A DNA stretch of 59,726 bases, filler included. It is 4 parts of 4 records of this genome, joined end to end, with 100 filler letters (N's around TTAATTAATTAA, not from the genome) between each part and the next. Parts side by side here need not be neighbours in the genome. Positions count along the whole stretch, not along the records: positions 26,732 to 32,757 come from SRR31156797_197; 3 more parts are not named here. One strand, 5' to 3'. The translations under genes and the position numbers were made by a program. Within the stretch, counting starts at the first letter, position 1. Each line of letters opens with the position of its first letter. This document shows, one piece after another, positions 26,732 to 33,833 of this stretch. The notes below the pieces were generated by a model. That model made no database searches. It was given only the letters and a program-made list of their open reading frames with translations, and had not been told where the DNA came from.

Positions 26732-27321
26732 TCATTAAACGATTGAAAGTTCCATGTTTGTGATACCGGACGAACCACATTTGCAATTTGCTGTTTCAGA
26801 TTTCCCTTTTCGAATTCAACCGGTTTTAAGCTGTAAACTCCTTTCTTTTCTTTTTCATTGGTAGGTGCTAAACCAAACTTCTGTTCCAGTTCCCGACAAA
26901 TACGCATGGATAAACGGTGCTGAAAATTGTCCCGTATCATTTTACCTGTTTCATCAATTTTTACAGAAACAATATGCAAATGGTGTCGGTCAATGTCTTC
27001 ATGCTTGAACACTATGTAGGGTTGATTTCCATAGCCGAGTTTTTCCATGTATTGTTCAGCCATCTGAGAGAACTGTTCATCGTTTAGCTTATCCCTTGGA
27101 TCGGGATTTAACGAAATATGAATAACCGGATTTTCAGTTCGTTTATTGGCACTTAAATAAGGCTCAAAAGAACTCGTGCATAAACCAATTGAATACTTTC
27201 CATCAAAAGGTTCAACCATTTTATTGACCATTAAAACAGAAGCAGCATCCTTTTTTAGCTTATCTTGATTGTATGCCAATGCACTGTAAATCGAACTTCC
27301 TGAACTTATTTTTGCAACCAT
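26732..27321 (-). CDS. mobB: Relaxase MobB, 3' truncated at contig end
   Basis: MVAKISSGSSIYSALAYNQ (Tyr motif), HISLNPDP and VFKHEDIDRHHLHIVS (HUH motif). Confidence 0.92.
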
Positions 27322-27737
27322 CTTTCCTCAAATTCTTTGGTTAAATCCAGTATCTTTTGGTTTATAGCTACCAATTGAAATGTCGCTTTCTGTAATTGCG
27401 CAATAAAAGCCAGTGCCTTTTTCTCCGCAAAATTGTTTTTTATTGCTTTGGTAACCTGATTGTAGTTCACTCCAATCGCCCTGAATTGCGAATAAAATGA
27501 GGTCAGACGCATATAATAATCCATCGATCCCTTATCTATTTTTACCACTTTAACGGGTTTGTCAAATATACAGGCAGTAATAAAATGCGCTTTAATTTCC
27601 ATTCCCGACGCCTCAAAAAGAGTAAGGAAACGTGCATTGTCAACATCATTTAAGCTAATTGCATAACGATGTATACACGGATCTTTTTTCGGTTTCCGGC
27701 CTCCTTTGTGTTTGTTCTTTCTGCTTTCTGTTTTCAT
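27306..27737 (-). CDS. mobA: Conjugal transfer protein MobA (relaxosome accessory)
   Basis: KGGRKPKKDP...RFLTLFEASG...YYMRLTSFYSQFRAIGVNYNQV; overlaps the mobB start. Confidence 0.88.
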   Translation of the reverse strand: MKTESRKNKHKGGRKPKKDPCIHRYAISLNDVDNARFLTLFEASGMEIKAHFITACIFDKPVKVVKIDKGSMDYYMRLTSFYSQFRAIGVNYNQVTKAIKNNFAEKKALAFIAQLQKATFQLVAINQKILDLTKEFEERWLQK

Positions 27738-27780
27738 TGTTTTTATAGCATTAGACCACATCAAAAAATTTAGCAAAAAT

Positions 27781-27890
27781 CACACGACTTCGGAGTGATG
27801 ATTTTCCCCAACGGGGCAAGTGGTTTCGGGTAACCCGGAACGTTTTGAGTTACTCAAAACACAACTTGCCGTGTGCCAGTGCACACCTTG
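27781..27890. other. Putative oriT region
   Basis: Clustered inverted repeats upstream of mobA (TTCGGGTAACCCGGA; GTTTTGAGT-T-ACTCAAAAC at 27842-27860) followed by ACAACTTGCC, resembling MOBP-type nic sites. Confidence 0.55.
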
Positions 27891-28417
27891 TAGCGTTACG
27901 ATATAAATTATTGGACATAGCCGTTTTGTATTCATGTTTTTATTCTTAAAAAATTGTTGGGAACAAAGGTAGAATGGGGTTTTTGAATTCTAATTATACG
28001 CAAATGAGCCAAATAAAGACAGTAAAGGACAAGTACTTCCAACGGTTTAAAAAGTGAAGTTTTGATAGCTTTTTATTTGTTCATTTGACTCGGTACATGC
28101 AGAATTATTTAATGATTGGTATAACGATTAAAAGAATTATAAGAACGAACAAAACAGGATTTAAACAAGGAGCAAATGAAATATTGAGGAACCGATTTAT
28201 GGACAATCTTCAATAATTAGGAAAAACGATAATTAAGCAGTTAAGTGATGTGATACTTCAACGCTGAAACGTTGCAACGCTTCATTAATTAAACGTTTCA
28301 ACACAAACTGATTTATACAACCAGTTAATCGTTTATTGATTCAGCCATTTTCCTATTTGAATGAATATCGAACTAAGTAAATACTGAAATAGAAGATTAA
28401 CCTATAAAATAAAGATC

Positions 28418-29179
28418 ATGGAAAAAGAAACATTATTTATTGCATTCAGCACACAAAAAGGAGGTGTTGGGAAAACAGCTTTTACTGTTTTAATGTCGAG
28501 TTATCTGCACTATGTAAAAGGTTTGGAAATTGGAGTTGTGGATTGCGATTATCCGCAGCACAGTATTGCCGAAATGCGCCGGCGCGATATGGAACAGGTG
28601 ATGAAAGACAGTTTTTATAAGCAAATGGCTTACAAGCAATTTACCACACAGAAGCGAAAGGCATACCCGGTTGAAAAAAGTATGCCTGAGGATGCCATTG
28701 ATGTAGCAGAAAATCTGATCGATGCTGCAACGACTCAACCCGATATAATATTTTTCGATCTTCCCGGAACTTTAAATAGTAGAGGTGTGGTTAAAACGCT
28801 GGGCGGAATGGATTATATCTTTTCGCCGGTAAGTGCCGACCGAGTGGTAATGGAAAGCACTTTAAAATATGCTACGATGTTAAATGAAAATCTGATAAGT
28901 GTTGGCAAAAGTGATATCAAAGGATTGTACCTTATCTGGAATATGGTGGATGGCCGGGAGAAAAACGAACTCTACGATGTATATGAAAATGTAATCGGCG
29001 AGTTGGGCTTAAATATTCTGAAAACTTTTGTGCCTGACTCAAAACGTTTTCGACGGGAACTCACTTCCGTTCATAAGCCGGTATTTCGCTCAACACTTTT
29101 TCCGGCCCACAACAGCCTTTTAAAAGGAAGTAACCTGATTGCGCTGGCTGATGAAATCCTAAAAACCATAAAACTGTAA
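28418..29179 (+). CDS. ParA-family ATPase (CTn TraA-like)
   Basis: STQKGGVGKT deviant Walker A, VVDCDYPQHS and FFDLPGT. Confidence 0.92.
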   Translation: MEKETLFIAFSTQKGGVGKTAFTVLMSSYLHYVKGLEIGVVDCDYPQHSIAEMRRRDMEQVMKDSFYKQMAYKQFTTQKRKAYPVEKSMPEDAIDVAENLIDAATTQPDIIFFDLPGTLNSRGVVKTLGGMDYIFSPVSADRVVMESTLKYATMLNENLISVGKSDIKGLYLIWNMVDGREKNELYDVYENVIGELGLNILKTFVPDSKRFRRELTSVHKPVFRSTLFPAHNSLLKGSNLIALADEILKTIKL

Positions 29180-29184
29180 AAGAC

Positions 29185-29550
29185 ATGGCACGAAAGAAAT
29201 ACAATCCAGACGAGATAGATGAAGAATTTATCATCTCAACGATTCAGAATGAAAAACCGGATTCTGAGAAGCCCAGGGAGCAAAAAGCTAAACCTACAGC
29301 AAAAAAGAAGAAGACCAATCAAGCTTATGATGAACTCTTCCTTTCAGATTCCAAAACGAAAGCACGTTTTGGGAAGAATGTTCCCATTCGACAAGAATAC
29401 CATAAACGGATTCAGCAGATTATTCGCGTGATTGGTAAGGACGAAATTTCGATTTATAACTATATAGATAATGTGTTGACACATCATTTTGACGAATTTC
29501 AGACGGAAATTGTCAAGCAATATAACGAAAACAATGAAGGCATTTTTTAA
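29185..29550 (+). CDS. DUF3408-family protein (CTn TraB-like)
   Basis: ARFGKNVPIRQEYHKRIQQII...SIYNYIDNVLTHHF; follows traA. Confidence 0.85.
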   Translation: MARKKYNPDEIDEEFIISTIQNEKPDSEKPREQKAKPTAKKKKTNQAYDELFLSDSKTKARFGKNVPIRQEYHKRIQQIIRVIGKDEISIYNYIDNVLTHHFDEFQTEIVKQYNENNEGIF

Positions 29551-29565
29551 CCCAAACCGGAAGTT

Positions 29566-30117
29566 ATGATTGAATTTGTTGTAACAGTAGGCTTAATCAT
29601 CCTGCTACGTATTTTCTTTAAGGATTGGAGGCGTTCTTCGGCTACAGTTGCCAATGAAGAAAGAAAAAGCGATTTATCAGATGATAGCGAAATTATTGGA
29701 AGAAGCACCTTCGTTTTGAATACGGAGAGAATAAGTCAATCCTCTTCAAATTCCACAGGTAAGCTGGATGTTGAAGTCGCTCTGGATTATGAGGATGTTG
29801 AGCTCGATGAAGAATTGGAGGAGCTTGGTATTGCCAACGGAACTTCGGTTGATCTGACTTTTGAAGAAATGATGGAGGTGGTTACCGAGGTTGAAAATGA
29901 GCAATCGGAAAAGCCATCTCAAACAGGGAAGTTACTTTATGAAAATGAAAATACCGATTGGGTAGAGCAAATGGCATCAACTTCCGAAAGCTACCAAAAA
30001 CGGATTTCGGATTTAATTGAGATACATTTGGGAAGCCTGGAGCAAACCCAGGTTTCTGTTCTGGATGATGGGGGTGATGTGTTTGATATTAGGAAGTATC
30101 TTAGTAAAACACCATAA
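29566..30117 (+). CDS. Acidic single-TM protein (DUF4122-like CTn accessory)
   Basis: N-terminal TM, IIGRSTF, acidic middle and C-terminal FDIRKYL; position after DUF3408. Confidence 0.6.
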   Translation: MIEFVVTVGLIILLRIFFKDWRRSSATVANEERKSDLSDDSEIIGRSTFVLNTERISQSSSNSTGKLDVEVALDYEDVELDEELEELGIANGTSVDLTFEEMMEVVTEVENEQSEKPSQTGKLLYENENTDWVEQMASTSESYQKRISDLIEIHLGSLEQTQVSVLDDGGDVFDIRKYLSKTP

Positions 30118-30153
30118 TTAAATACTGTTCAATGTGGATAAATTGCGTTGTTT

Positions 30154-30345
30154 TTAAAACAGCAATGTTTGTTTATCAATCTCATTCTGGATCTTGTCCG
30201 TAATTGATTTATAAAATGCAGAACAACAATAGTTACCTATAACTATAACACCGTTAGCAACCTGAAACGACGCAGTTTTGTTGTGTTCAGGACATTTCTC
30301 GGATTTAACTCGATCGATTACTTTGTTTAAAAAATTCTTATTCAT
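30154..30345 (-). CDS. Small protein with CxxH...CC putative Zn site; last gene of the defence cassette
   Basis: 63 aa with CPEH and YCC; ATG 8 nt after the E2 stop. Confidence 0.65.
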   Translation of the reverse strand: MNKNFLNKVIDRVKSEKCPEHNKTASFQVANGVIVIGNYCCSAFYKSITDKIQNEIDKQTLLF

Positions 30346-30353
30346 AACATTAA

Positions 30354-30815
30354 TTAATCTATGTTTCTATTTACATTTCTTTCGCTTTCTGTAAAGTGAG
30401 TTGGCGATTCTCGACCTTCCCATTTATTGCCATTTATTAAATATAATTCGTAATACACAATCCATTCAATAAGCCATGGAATTGTATATTCATGAATCAA
30501 AATTTTTTCATTCCAGGGTAAATCCGGTGGATAGTGCAGACAAAGACTATGATCTTGATACATATGAATTTCTCTACATGGTTCAATGTTTGGTTCAAGA
30601 ATGGTTGTTTTAGGTTCACATCCTGCTACATATTCTATTCTTACCTTATACCGACTTTTGCACCCTTCAGGTTTTACAAATCCTGTGCAAACTAACACCT
30701 TCTTCTCTATCCTGCATTTTAGAAATTTAAAATGGCTTTCAACTTGTTTTCTTTGTTTTACAAGCAGAGCATATTTATTATACCTTAATCCTCTAATGAA
30801 TATCTTATTCGTCAT
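30354..30815 (-). CDS. Stand-alone prokaryotic E2 (ubiquitin-conjugating-like) enzyme of CBASS type II-short kind
   Basis: YKVRIEY...PK, HMYQDHSLCLHYP (HxY...LCL catalytic Cys), W...YTIPWLIEWIVYYELY...G.KWEG. Start overlaps the cyclase stop by 11 nt. Confidence 0.8.
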   Translation of the reverse strand: MTNKIFIRGLRYNKYALLVKQRKQVESHFKFLKCRIEKKVLVCTGFVKPEGCKSRYKVRIEYVAGCEPKTTILEPNIEPCREIHMYQDHSLCLHYPPDLPWNEKILIHEYTIPWLIEWIVYYELYLINGNKWEGRESPTHFTESERNVNRNID

Positions 30816-31875
30816 AGTGAAACCTATGGTTTTGATTTTTTACTCCATCAGAAGCGCCTGAAATATTTCCGTGCGAATCAGTAAATGCATTACCACAAGT
30901 TATTAAAGTTGCTGCCTGACGAAGCCTTTTTCTTCTGTCATCCTCTGATTCATAGTACAAACTTCCATCTTCATCTTGTGTGATATACGGTAGGTTTTTC
31001 AAGAATTCATACCATTTAAAATCCAAAACTTTGTAGTAAAAACTTTTGGCTGGGTTCTCAAATATATAGCGTTTCTTGATTTCACCTTTATAGTTTTTTA
31101 CCCAGTCGTACAAGGTATCATCAAGTTCTGATACTGACTTAATATTATCCCCAACTGCAATGCTATTTGCATTTGCGATTGCTTGCATTTTAGATGCAAG
31201 ACTAGTGTGTAAGCTGTATGTAGTAATCTCACTACATGCTCCAATTCCTGCTACAGCCCAAAGAACGGATTCATCATAGCCAAAATCGATTCCTATGCGC
31301 GTATGAATATCTTCAATACCTTCTTCTTCAAATAGTTTCTTTAAATCGTTTTTTACAAAATACGTGAAGAAACTTGTTGCAGTTAATGCACTTATTACGG
31401 CTTGTTTTTTCTCAACATTTTTACCCCCAAAATAAACAAATACACCATCACCTTGTAAACGCTGTATATACCCCCCAAGAATTGCACAGGTATGTATAGC
31501 AGCTCGTTGAATGACGTTTGTAATATTTTTAATTATATCAACAGGGTATTTACGAAACATACCAGTTGAATTTTTTATGTCAATAAAAACAGATGTAATA
31601 TAATGGTATTCAGTCTTACTTGTATTTCTTAGATAGGCAAAGTCAGGATGTTCGCCAAGCCTTTGATTTTTTATTTCTGTTTTCCCAACCGCATTCATTA
31701 ATGGAACTAAACTCTGATTTGGTTGAACATTGACTATAATTCCTTTACTGCTATCGTAAAGTCCTTCAATACCTTCTATCCCTTTCTTAATTGACCTTGA
31801 GGAATCAGTAAATGCACTAAGATTACCTGAAAGTGCACCTTTTATTTCATCAATATAGTTTTGGTATAATTTCAT
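30805..31875 (-). CDS. pycC: Class III nucleotidyl cyclase, PycC-like (Pycsar pyrimidine cyclase)
   Basis: Metal-binding VFIDIKNST and QRLQGDG; RIGIDFG...VLW, SEITT, ASKMQ and upstream GEHPDF as I recall for PycC; directly follows a DUF5706 effector. Confidence 0.82.
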   Translation of the reverse strand: MKLYQNYIDEIKGALSGNLSAFTDSSRSIKKGIEGIEGLYDSSKGIIVNVQPNQSLVPLMNAVGKTEIKNQRLGEHPDFAYLRNTSKTEYHYITSVFIDIKNSTGMFRKYPVDIIKNITNVIQRAAIHTCAILGGYIQRLQGDGVFVYFGGKNVEKKQAVISALTATSFFTYFVKNDLKKLFEEEGIEDIHTRIGIDFGYDESVLWAVAGIGACSEITTYSLHTSLASKMQAIANANSIAVGDNIKSVSELDDTLYDWVKNYKGEIKKRYIFENPAKSFYYKVLDFKWYEFLKNLPYITQDEDGSLYYESEDDRRKRLRQAATLITCGNAFTDSHGNISGASDGVKNQNHRFHYDE

Positions 31876-31878
31876 TTT

Positions 31879-32382
31879 TTAATAATTAAGTGAATAAATA
31901 ACTGTGAAAATCACTATTACAATTGCTTGTAAAGCAATAAGACGTGATGCAACTCTGATTCTAAAAAATTTTTGCTTTAAACCTTTGGCTAACTGATGGG
32001 CTTGGCCTACAAGGTCATTATTGAACTCTTCAGGAGCTTGTTTTAAACACCTGAATATATACTCATCAAGGTTCTGGTTTGCAACATCCTCAAAATAGTA
32101 AACCGAAGATGTATTCTTAATTACCTTTTTACCCAAAAAAGGTTTAACCGCCGATAGTGTAAACAAGATCGAACCAAGACAAATTGCTAGTTCCACAAAA
32201 AATAGAATGTTAAGAACTCCACATAAATTAATATCAGAACTTAAAGAAAGGTATCCTGTAATAACTCCTCCAATTATAAATGTGTTAAGGGCTAAATATA
32301 GATTACTCTTACTGTTAATCCCTTCATAGTAATGATCATATCGACCAATGATAAATTTAATTTCTTCAGATAATTGTCCCAT
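31879..32382 (-). CDS. pycTM: Pycsar transmembrane effector (PycTM, DUF5706-like)
   Basis: 167 aa: INSKSNLYL, TM, TM ending SAVKP, SSVYYFEDVA, QAHQLAKGLKQKF and a C-terminal TM, the DUF5706 layout. Stop lies 3 nt before the cyclase start. Confidence 0.8.
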   Translation of the reverse strand: MGQLSEEIKFIIGRYDHYYEGINSKSNLYLALNTFIIGGVITGYLSLSSDINLCGVLNILFFVELAICLGSILFTLSAVKPFLGKKVIKNTSSVYYFEDVANQNLDEYIFRCLKQAPEEFNNDLVGQAHQLAKGLKQKFFRIRVASRLIALQAIVIVIFTVIYSLNY

Positions 32383-32385
32383 TAG

Positions 32386-32556
32386 TTACTCCTTTCGTAC
32401 CCCTTTAAATGGTTTGTCACTTGATGTTTTTACATCCATAAATCTCCCGGGTTCAGAATCGCGTTTTGTCCAAAGCCCGGTTTTTGGATTTTTTACCTGA
32501 GAACGCTGTCTTACTGCTCCTTTTCTACTTCCATCTTTGGGTGGATTTGTTGCCAT
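32386..32556 (-). CDS. 56-aa Lys/Arg-rich small protein, first gene of the cassette
   Basis: Not in the ORF track. Manual translation: MATNPPKDGSRKGAVRQRSQVKNPKTGLWTKRDSEPGRFMDVKTSSDKPFKGVRKE*. Stop is 3 nt before the effector ATG. Confidence 0.75.
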   Translation of the reverse strand: MATNPPKDGSRKGAVRQRSQVKNPKTGLWTKRDSEPGRFMDVKTSSDKPFKGVRKE

Positions 32557-32589
32557 AATTTCTTTATCTTTAAATATTTTTTACCCTTA

Positions 32590-32618
32590 TACTAAAAGCG
32601 TGAGTCACGCTTTTGGTA
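32590..32618. promoter_or_regulatory. Palindromic operator-like site between divergent genes
   Basis: Perfect AAAAGCGTGA-G-TCACGCTTTT (32594-32614), extendable to 29 bp with one mismatch. Confidence 0.55.
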
Positions 32619-32637
32619 GTTAATAAACAACACTAAA

Positions 32638-32757
32638 TTGGAAGTAATAGAAGAAATTAAGTCAGCCTGTAGTTTAGACCTACTAGAATATATCAGCTGG
32701 AAAAGCGAGTATAGGAATGAAGCCGAAGCAGCATTTGCTGAATTTTGTCTTCGATAT
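32638..32757 (+). CDS. Partial ORF, possibly the N-terminus of an ECF/sigma-70-like factor
   Basis: TTG start, open to the contig end: (M)EVIEEIKSACSLDLLEYISWKSEYRNEAEAAFAEFCLRY. 'AF.E...RY' resembles the entry into ECF sigma region 2. Confidence 0.4.
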
Positions 32758-32857: not shown

Positions 32858-33748
32858 TACCAAATCTTCATCAATCCCAATTACTTTACCAAAGCCTTCA
32901 CATTTTGGACAGGCACCAACGGGATTGTTAAAACTAAAAGTGTGTACATTAGGATCTTCAAAAACAATTCCATCTGCTTCAAATCGATTTGAGAATTTAT
33001 AACTCACGTCTCGAAACGAAATTAAGCATTCACCGTTACCTTCGTAAAAGGCAGTTTGTAAAGAATCGGCAATTCTATTTTGCGTATCCTCGTCATCGGA
33101 AACTCTTATTCTATCAATAACGATATGAATTGCTTCTTTGTCAGGGATAATTTCTGGAGCTTCTAAAGCGTCATGAATTTTATGAATTTGACCATTAATT
33201 TCAATTCTGGAGAATCCTTGTTTTGATAAAACTTCCAGTTGTTCTTTTTTGCTACGATCGGAATTTTGCATTTCTGCCAATATCATAACGGGAAGATCCT
33301 TCTTCTGCTTTAATATGAAATTAACAACGTCAGTAATAGTATGACGTTTTACCAAAGCATTGGAAATAGGAGAATAGGTTTTTCCAATTCGAGCAAAAAG
33401 CAACTTTAAATAGTCATAAATTTCGGTAGAGGTTCCAACCGTTGAGCGCGGGTTTCTGGTATTTACCTTTTGTTCTATCGCAATAGCAGGAGGAATTCCT
33501 TTTATAAAATCAACCTCAGGTTTATCAATTCTACCCAAAAATTGTCTTGCGTAGGCAGATAAACTTTCAACATATCTTCTTTGTCCTTCAGCATAAAGTG
33601 TATCGAATGCTAAAGATGATTTTCCAGAACCGGATAAACCAGTAATAACAATGAATTGATTCCTTGGAATCTTTAAATCAATGTTTTTTAAATTGTGCAC
33701 TCTAGCACCTTTAATATGAATGTAGTCTTCGCTTATCTTATCAGTCAT
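32858..33748 (-). CDS. uvrA: Excinuclease ABC subunit A, 3' truncated
   Basis: GARVHNLKNI, TGLSGSGKSSLAFDTLYAEGQRRYVESLS, NPRSTVGT and FSFNNPVGACPKCEG. Confidence 0.96.
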
Positions 33749-33802
33749 CGTTAAATTCTCTCCCGGAGTCGATTGTTGAATTATTGTCTTAAATTGAATC
33801 TC

Positions 33803-33833
33803 CAAAGTTATTTAACTTCTAAAGATTTTCAAA
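33803..33833 (-). promoter_or_regulatory. Bacteroidota primary-sigma promoter for uvrA
   Basis: TTTG-N19-TAACTTTG on the minus strand, matching the -33/-7 consensus TTTG/TAnnTTTG. Confidence 0.6.

Follow-up and report, generated by a model that had tools for sequence, protein, structure and literature searches.

Pycsar (an antiphage-resistance system built on a pyrimidine cyclase) is usually described as a two-gene system, and we know of no explanation of how its cyclase senses infection. An operon at positions 30154-32556 of the 59,726-nucleotide (nt) stretch of DNA analysed here (the window) raises the question of why the cyclase of such a system should be followed by the gene of a stand-alone E2, that is, a protein of the ubiquitin-conjugating type, and whether the two small proteins encoded at the ends of the operon belong to the same machinery. 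The window consists of four pieces joined by pairs of 44-N runs flanking 12-base spacers, and the operon lies on the second of these (26732-32757; 6,026 bp). The first-pass annotation had presented the five genes as a candidate new antiphage system in which E2-type control was joined to a pyrimidine cyclase. The reading that we favour, with a probability of about 0.6 when taken as a whole, is that of a Pycsar abortive-infection operon in which the E2 would serve as a dedicated covalent regulator of the cyclase, PycC.

The cyclase and its membrane effector

Five co-oriented open reading frames (ORFs), all on the minus strand, were recovered at 30154-32556, and the inter-ORF spacing of 3, 3, -11 and 8 nt given for them in the first-pass annotation was reproduced. 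The central gene encodes PycC (30805-31875, minus strand; 356 residues), a class III pyrimidine cyclase of the clade-E (cytidylate) type, which matches the PADLOC PycC profile PDLC00767 (1.5e-118) and, in Pfam, PF00211 Guanylate_cyc (2.3e-6). Its closest solved relative is the cytidylate cyclase EaPycC (PDB 8jsf, 1.5e-86). The two metal-binding aspartates of a class III cyclase, which had been read from the sequence earlier, are present as D99 and D143. The EaPycC paper gives D102 and D146 as metal ligands and F100, R142 and Q144 as the residues that determine specificity for cytidine triphosphate (CTP) (PMC11224242); in the window PycC, F97, D99, R139, Q141 and D143 are found at a spacing identical to that of these counterparts.

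The PycTM gene (31879-32382, minus strand; 167 residues) lies 3 nt upstream of PycC. Its product matches Pfam PF18967 PycTM (1.2e-9) and, in PADLOC, both the 2TM effector (1.1e-45) and PycTM (3.4e-29) profiles, and shows hydrophobic segments at about residues 45-84 and 139-167. The features by which a Pycsar locus is recognised in sequence, namely a PycC-family cyclase, the aspartate and specificity residues and an adjacent PycTM effector, are therefore all found in this operon.

The stand-alone E2

The E2 gene (30354-30815, minus strand) encodes 153 residues, and its start overlaps the PycC stop codon by 11 nt. The protein matches the PADLOC E2 profile PDLC00862 (6.2e-44) and, better still, the E2 end of the 542-position profile PDLC00816, named 'Cyclase' (6.8e-48), while its best PDB sequence match is 8hsb_B, the E2 of the Serratia marcescens CdnG-E2 complex (5.4e-7). 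The UBC fold postulated for this protein was borne out by an AlphaFold2 (AF2) model with a predicted local distance difference test (pLDDT) score of 86.9, for which the top Foldseek matches are E2s: 8hsb_B and 8yjy_B come first (E 1.5e-5 and 3.8e-5; TM-score 0.64-0.67), followed by Cdc34 and Rad6. The model comprises a single UBC domain, and no additional domain is shown by Pfam or PADLOC.

Both motifs described earlier were found, as H84-M-Y86 and L91-C92-L93. H84 and C92 align with H87 and C101 of the Serratia enzyme (SmE2) and are invariant in all 24 PycC-linked and all 13 CD-NTase-linked E2s aligned; in the PycC-linked set alone, H89 and H140 are invariant as well. Measured against a close copy of the operon, described below, the ratio of nonsynonymous to synonymous substitution rates (dN/dS) of the E2 is 0.06.

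Neither Pfam nor NCBIfam returned a match for the E2, and the NCBIfam search gave zero matches for all five operon proteins. A plasmid search with the E2 yielded 33 records, all below 60% identity. Among the 25 records listed, most are called 'hypothetical protein' and six stand under or beside a nucleotidyltransferase or CBASS (a phage-defence signalling system based on cyclic oligonucleotides) gene; linkage to PycC is shown for none of these 25. Because Pfam and NCBIfam are blind to this E2 and its plasmid matches are mostly labelled 'hypothetical protein', it may have been overlooked so far.

The C-terminal tail of PycC

The alignment of the window PycC to 8jsf stops at residue 308, leaving the last ~45 residues outside the cyclase core. 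This tail (approximately residues 309-356; 30805-30951, minus strand), which ends in NHRFHYDE, is the predicted site of E2 docking and processing on the combined basis of BLASTP, PADLOC and a model of the complex. Residues 312-354 match positions 362-404 of PDLC00816, just ahead of its E2 part (7.1e-5). Using BLASTP, the last 71 residues were found to match the extreme C-termini of two CD-NTases encoded directly before E2 genes, those of loci L004 (2e-7) and L007 (3e-7). The C-termini of E2-linked CD-NTases read …HRFYGE or …FYG plus 1-4 residues, and that of the window PycC …NHRFHYDE. Judged from these matches, E2-linked CD-NTases and PycC have homologous tails.

When the tail motif was scored in the 120 best PycC homologs of the protein collection, H[RKSH][FS]H followed by an aromatic residue was found near the C-terminus of 119. 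An AGS-C domain was also considered as the C-terminus of PycC and rejected, Pfam AGS_C matching only a 450-residue cyclase at another locus, L023 (3e-14), and not the window PycC.

Pairing of cyclase tails and E2 types

To what extent the cyclase and the E2 occur together was assessed in two samples. The first comprised 401 genomes of one phylum, that of the Draconibacterium metagenome-assembled genome (MAG) that carries locus L001. Six of these genomes have a PycC homolog, and an E2-type gene lies downstream of it in five: two of the six loci combine an HRFHY-type tail with a short E2 like that of the window, and three combine a …KPYF… tail with a longer E2-family protein, here called E2L. 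The remaining locus is a PycC-AGS_C fusion with no E2 within 885 bp downstream. An E2 homolog was detected in 15 of the 401 genomes; two of these have PycC as the upstream gene and the other 13 a CD-NTase, in one case as a fusion.

A scan of genome contigs with a single PycC gave one locus only. The second sample came from a metagenome scan with a 38-sequence PycC alignment, which produced 211 confirmed matches, the best 80 of which were examined; these hold 77 distinct PycC sequences, with PycC identities of 43-81%. Seventy-three of the 80 loci were evaluable, having a complete PycC and at least 300 bp downstream, with one frameshifted PycC (L041) counted among them. HRFHY-tailed cyclases are followed by a short E2 at 22 of 22 loci and KPY-tailed cyclases by E2L at 49 of 50, the exception (L081) having only 349 bp downstream; at the frameshifted locus a short E2 is present. 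There are zero cross-combinations of tail and E2 type among the 73 evaluable loci, and an E2-family gene stands directly downstream of PycC in 72 of them. Of the metagenome loci, 64 retain 400 bp or more of upstream sequence, and every one of these has a PycTM homolog upstream of PycC.

In this PycC clade a downstream E2 is the normal arrangement, and there is good support for a functional link between the E2 and PycC. The proposal of the first-pass annotation that E2-type control had been joined to a pyrimidine cyclase is supported by the tail homology, the retained His/Cys dyad and a co-variation of tail and E2 type that is without exception among the loci examined, and the co-occurrence of the two genes on which it depended is seen at 72 of the 73 evaluable loci. 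The idea of a rare new system did not survive the same survey: the relatives that have a downstream E2 include close relatives of EaPycC, and links between E2s and Pycsar are already in print.

Two loci of this survey deserve mention in their own right. At L041 (positions 500-1541) PycC is split into two overlapping ORFs of 244 and 130 residues, with PycTM and the E2 intact, which is likely a frameshift or an assembly error. At L093 a second PycC-like ORF (438 residues) lies directly upstream of the E2L-linked PycC, and this locus may carry two cyclases.

The longer E2 of KPY-tailed cyclases

E2L proteins are 205-256 residues long overall and 214-243 residues in the genome sample, where they match PADLOC PDLC00833 (7e-71 to 2.5e-97). 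They follow a PycC with a …KPY[FYL]… tail at L020:2508-3152, L021:2465-3196 and L022:726-1451, in addition to the 49 metagenome loci. E2L and the short E2 are distant relatives (hhalign probability 83%, E 8.6e-6) whose His, Cys and His positions align. The E2L model shows a UBC-like core with additional helices and, matching the zinc motif of SecA, a CxC…CH knuckle. We discarded a description of E2L as an E2 fused to an inactive JAB, given this UBC-like core with a SecA-type zinc knuckle and no JAB-type match.

The crystallised EaPycC (8jsf) ends in …GYKPYL plus one residue, the same tail type as that of the cyclases of L074, L078 and L083, each of which is followed by E2L. A term search of the main text of the EaPycC paper found neither 'ubiquitin' nor 'E2-like' (PMC11224242).

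Model of the PycC-E2 complex and proposed mechanism

The complex was modelled by ESMFold2 without supplied alignments, taking the median of three runs. The PycC-E2 pair scored 0.62, and the best control 0.38; 51 of 78 solved complexes and 2 of 108 mismatched pairs attained that mark. Agreement between the runs is at least 71% of contacts and the partner pLDDT at least 80, and all confident PycC contacts to the E2 fall within residues 299-355. In the model a PycC helix (~311-342) packs on the E2 helix 111-127, and PycC residues 349-355 lie against E2 H84, residues 92-96 and residues 132-140, with F352 and H353 touching H84 and residues 93-95.

The Serratia system offers a biochemical precedent for what such a complex could do. 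According to the reports, C101 and H87 of the Serratia E2 act like a cysteine protease, the residue after cyclase G406 is removed, and a thioester and then an isopeptide bond are formed (10.1101/2022.05.25.493364; PMC12948482); the thioester is G406~C101, and it is followed by transfer to K159 or to other cyclase molecules, with no E1 involved (10.1101/2022.05.25.493364). The same source calls the conjugated glycine 'highly conserved' in E2-linked CD-NTases (10.1101/2022.05.25.493364).

We propose that upon infection PycC would make cyclic cytidine monophosphate (cCMP), its most likely product, and that cCMP would activate PycTM, leading, as expected from the family, to membrane damage and to the infected cell being stopped. 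The E2 would be a dedicated regulator of PycC and not a general ubiquitin enzyme. It would dock on the ~45-residue PycC tail with the HRFHY end placed in the His84/Cys92 groove, an arrangement taken from the model and supported by the co-variation. By analogy with Serratia E2-CBASS, the His/Cys pair would cut off the last one or two residues of PycC and a PycC~Cys92 thioester would form without E1 or adenosine triphosphate (ATP); PycC would then be passed to a lysine of another PycC or of some other protein, by which cyclase output may be primed or boosted. Unlike in E2-CBASS, the acyl-donor position would be occupied not by glycine but by Asp355 or Tyr354. The two small proteins would be co-transcribed add-ons outside the core.

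Several observations weigh against this mechanism. Among the 119 homologs the residue that follows the HRFH-aromatic motif is most often E (63) or G (40) and otherwise D (10), A (3) or V (2), and one homolog stops at the aromatic residue and so has no leaving group; in the window PycC the position is Asp355, and in the cyclase of L001 it is Glu. Between 0 and 12 further residues follow beyond that position, most often making one or two in all. Since …HRFHYE is the exact C-terminus of many homologs, a cleavage-driven thioester would need Tyr as acyl donor in these proteins, whose E2s may alternatively act without conjugation. Beyond K131 the window E2 contains no further lysine, and hence no counterpart of the acceptor K159. 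The passing score of the model may partly reflect likeness to the solved CdnG-E2 complex, the cCMP product is predicted from five residues only, and our literature search found neither biochemical nor phage results for a PycC-E2 pair. It is the non-conserved glycine and the missing lysine after K131 that keep the covalent mechanism at the level of probability given at the outset.

An alternative, which we consider unlikely, is an E2 that binds the PycC tail without conjugating it. Such an E2 could be a non-covalent regulatory subunit, or a protease limited to trimming or holding the tail; it might, for example, hold the cyclase inactive until displaced by some phage cue. That most homologs have Asp, Glu, Ala or Val in place of the acyl-donor Gly, and that one has no residue after the aromatic, would fit this role, as would the absence of an acceptor lysine from the C-terminal loop of the E2, and the long modelled contact between PycC helix 311-342 and E2 helix 111-127 could suffice for binding. 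On the other side, the invariance of H84 and C92, plus that of H89 and H140, in 24 of 24 PycC-linked E2s argues for retained catalysis, and the E2 is under strong purifying selection.

The two microproteins

In a different view of the operon all five genes would form one system in which both microproteins are required, as the first-pass annotation had proposed. The small ORFs are indeed tightly spaced (3 and 8 nt) and under purifying selection, with dN/dS values of 0.05 for the 56-residue protein (p56) and 0.08 for the 63-residue protein (p63) in comparison with L001. Their distribution makes this five-gene reading improbable.

The basic peptide p56 (32386-32556, minus strand) contains 15 K/R and 6 D/E among its 56 residues and belongs to the PADLOC candidate family PDC-S38 (PDLC05010, 6.7e-31). 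It recurs upstream of PycTM in operons of either E2 type, which speaks for a role in the system, and was also found in L001, G288, G188 and G392 (loci L001, L019, L020 and L021). However, it is present at only 6 of the 57 metagenome loci that extend 900 bp or more upstream, and it matches phrog_12550 (1e-24), its family thus being found in phages as well.

p63 (30154-30345, minus strand) carries the CxxH/CC residues reported earlier, as C18, H21, C40 and C41, and these are kept in all four of its homologs. Those four are the only ones in 5.8 billion proteins, all of them 63 residues long, 73-84% identical and from close relatives. The gene occurs at one of the 80 metagenome loci (L024) and is absent from the other 79 and from G288. 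No match to p63 was obtained in Pfam, PADLOC or NCBIfam, and the protein atlas placed both p56 and p63 in unnamed clusters only. We take p56 and p63 to be real genes, and from their distribution regard p56 as accessory and optional, and p63 as young and specific to its lineage.

Another small gene was observed in relatives of the operon and is absent from the window. It encodes an LRAT/NlpC-like protein of ~137-163 residues, lies directly upstream of PycTM with either E2 type, and was found at L017:4845-5258 and at nine of the 80 metagenome loci (L034, L039, L040, L053, L059, L065, L067, L074 and L078); the G288 copy matches Pfam LRAT (8.4e-8).

As for the remaining possibility, that the E2 is an unrelated neighbour with no functional link to PycC, for example a decayed CBASS remnant or an independent defence gene, the 13 of 15 E2 homologs that adjoin CD-NTases and not PycC in the genome sample might suggest it, but it is scarcely credible in view of the direct downstream E2 at 72 of 73 PycC loci with perfectly matching tail and E2 types, the 11-nt gene overlap, the homology of the PycC tail to a CD-NTase tail recognised by E2s, and PycC identities of 43-81%, which show that the loci are not copies of a single element.

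History of the tail-plus-E2 cassette

The tail and the E2 also recur together outside Pycsar. Natural fusions were found in which a CD-NTase is followed by a tail (…EHRFHFG) and an E2 (558-565 residues; E2 part 59-62% identical to the window E2), and in which a PLD-family protein (PF13091) is followed by a tail (…PHRFHGG) and an E2 (389 residues). Identity to the window E2 ranges over 46-62% for the E2 parts of the fusion set (P0125-P0131).

In a tree of 33 E2s, the 21 PycC-linked sequences form one split (100/99), adjoining the E2s of L004-L007, the loci whose CD-NTases have the tails most similar to that of PycC. When the fusions were included, five CD-NTase-fusion E2 domains fell within the PycC-linked group (97/97), beside that of L032 (99/99), and the two PLD fusions formed its sister group. 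The PycC label requires at least two changes on this tree, and therefore the tail-plus-E2 cassette has moved between enzyme types more than once. The tree was midpoint-rooted and its stand-alone CD-NTase-linked E2s come from the one-phylum sample, and for these reasons we claim no direction of transfer.

A more far-reaching proposal would be that a portable tail-plus-E2 cassette acts as an E1-free conjugation switch for unrelated enzymes (class III pyrimidine cyclase, Pol-beta-fold CD-NTases and a PLD-family protein), that it uses a non-glycine acyl donor (Tyr, Asp or Glu) in Pycsar, and that clade E Pycsar systems are all three-component. We put this forward tentatively, as a possibility whose chances are a good deal lower than even. 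If true, it would mean a non-glycine donor chemistry that is not described for any ubiquitin-like system, and an overlooked third component in all cCMP-type (clade E) Pycsar, including that of the crystallised cyclase.

The mobile element and neighbouring genes

The 6-kb piece also encodes a MobA/VirD2 relaxase, MobC_2, ParA and DUF3408, neighbours that confirm the conjugative-element setting noticed in the first reading; the piece is a fragment of a mobilisable or conjugative element from a Bacteroidota-type organism. L001, from the Draconibacterium MAG, holds a close copy of the whole five-gene operon in the same element, with an 81%-identical PycC. Against this copy all five ORFs are under purifying selection (dN/dS 0.03-0.18). 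No CD-NTase, E1 or JAB ORF is present in the 6,026-bp piece or in the 4-kb flanks in L001, so that the earlier statement that these genes are lacking stands for this part of the element and no wider. A promoter and terminator scan found sites no more numerous than in shuffled sequence.

A divergent gene begins 81 nt upstream of p56 (32638-32757, plus strand) and is cut by the end of the piece. Its full copy (L001:2566-3231, minus strand) encodes 221 residues without a Pfam match and is followed in L001 by a 111-residue ORF and an IrrE-like M78 peptidase (1.1e-14); the three could form a module that regulates the element or the operon. The G+C contents of the four window pieces are 55.7%, 35.6%, 34.4% and 42.2%, and given this spread they may not all come from one organism. 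At the start of the next piece, the ORF at 32858-33805 (minus strand) has by eye the look of an N-terminal UvrA (Walker A GLSGSGKSS).

Comparison with known systems

Associations between Pycsar cyclases and ubiquitin-like genes have been described before. One source describes a 'Type II Pycsar' that comprises an E2-E1 fusion protein together with a JAB peptidase, credited to van den Berg et al. 2024 (PMC11601596), and our full-text search met this term in one preprint. In another, a 'Pycsar-like-4' subclade is defined by its link to E2-like genes and predicted to prefer ATP (10.64898/2026.08.12.744502). In their accessible portions, neither mentions a cytidylate-type PycC accompanied by a stand-alone E2, a tail in common or a co-variation of tail and E2 (PMC11601596; 10.64898/2026.08.12.744502). 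The full-text literature search, covering titles and abstracts and the terms 'type II short' with Pycsar and 'E2-Pycsar', found no E2-only Pycsar, although Tal et al. 2021, Burroughs et al. 2015 or supplements may list such operons.

Our data suggest that the E2 is a constant third component of the cytidylate-cyclase clade, matched to the cyclase tail, which would give a concrete handle on cyclase activation. The presence of the same tail-plus-E2 cassette in CBASS and in a PLD fusion means that results obtained with the Serratia E2 could transfer to Pycsar, and the non-glycine tails offer a natural test of the acyl donors that an E1-free E2 can use.

Type II CBASS (Cap2 E1-E2 fusion plus Cap3 JAB) resembles the mechanism proposed for the window operon in that a signalling enzyme is conjugated through its C-terminus, but it needs E1 adenylation and a JAB deconjugase, neither of which is seen here. 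Type II Pycsar and Pycsar-like-4 have in common with the window operon the genomic association of a Pycsar-type cyclase with genes for ubiquitin-like conjugation, and regulation by ligation has been proposed for them. As described, however, their E2 is fused to an E1 or to an inactive JAB and accompanied by a JAB peptidase, whereas the window E2 stands alone; the window cyclase is moreover of the cytidylate type, which may set it apart from Pycsar-like-4.

Type II-short E2-CBASS (S. marcescens CdnG-E2, 8hsb/8yjy) shares with the window operon a stand-alone UBC-fold E2 of ~150 residues that has a His/Cys dyad, the absence of both E1 and JAB, and a signalling enzyme whose homologous C-terminal tail ends in an aromatic-rich motif. 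The two differ in the regulated enzyme, here a class III pyrimidine cyclase and not a CD-NTase, in the conjugating Gly, which is Asp in the window PycC and not conserved in the PycC clade, in the acceptor K159, which has no counterpart in the window E2, and in the extra invariant H89 and H140 of PycC-linked E2s. Clade E Pycsar, represented by EaPycC of Elizabethkingia anophelis (8jsf), has the same cyclase core and the same metal-binding and CTP-specificity residues, as well as relatives with a PycTM-type effector; it differs in its KPY-type tail, which goes with E2L, whereas the window cyclase pairs an HRFHY tail with the short E2. Seen beside these systems, the window operon is an uncharacterised E2-only variant of Pycsar and not a new system.

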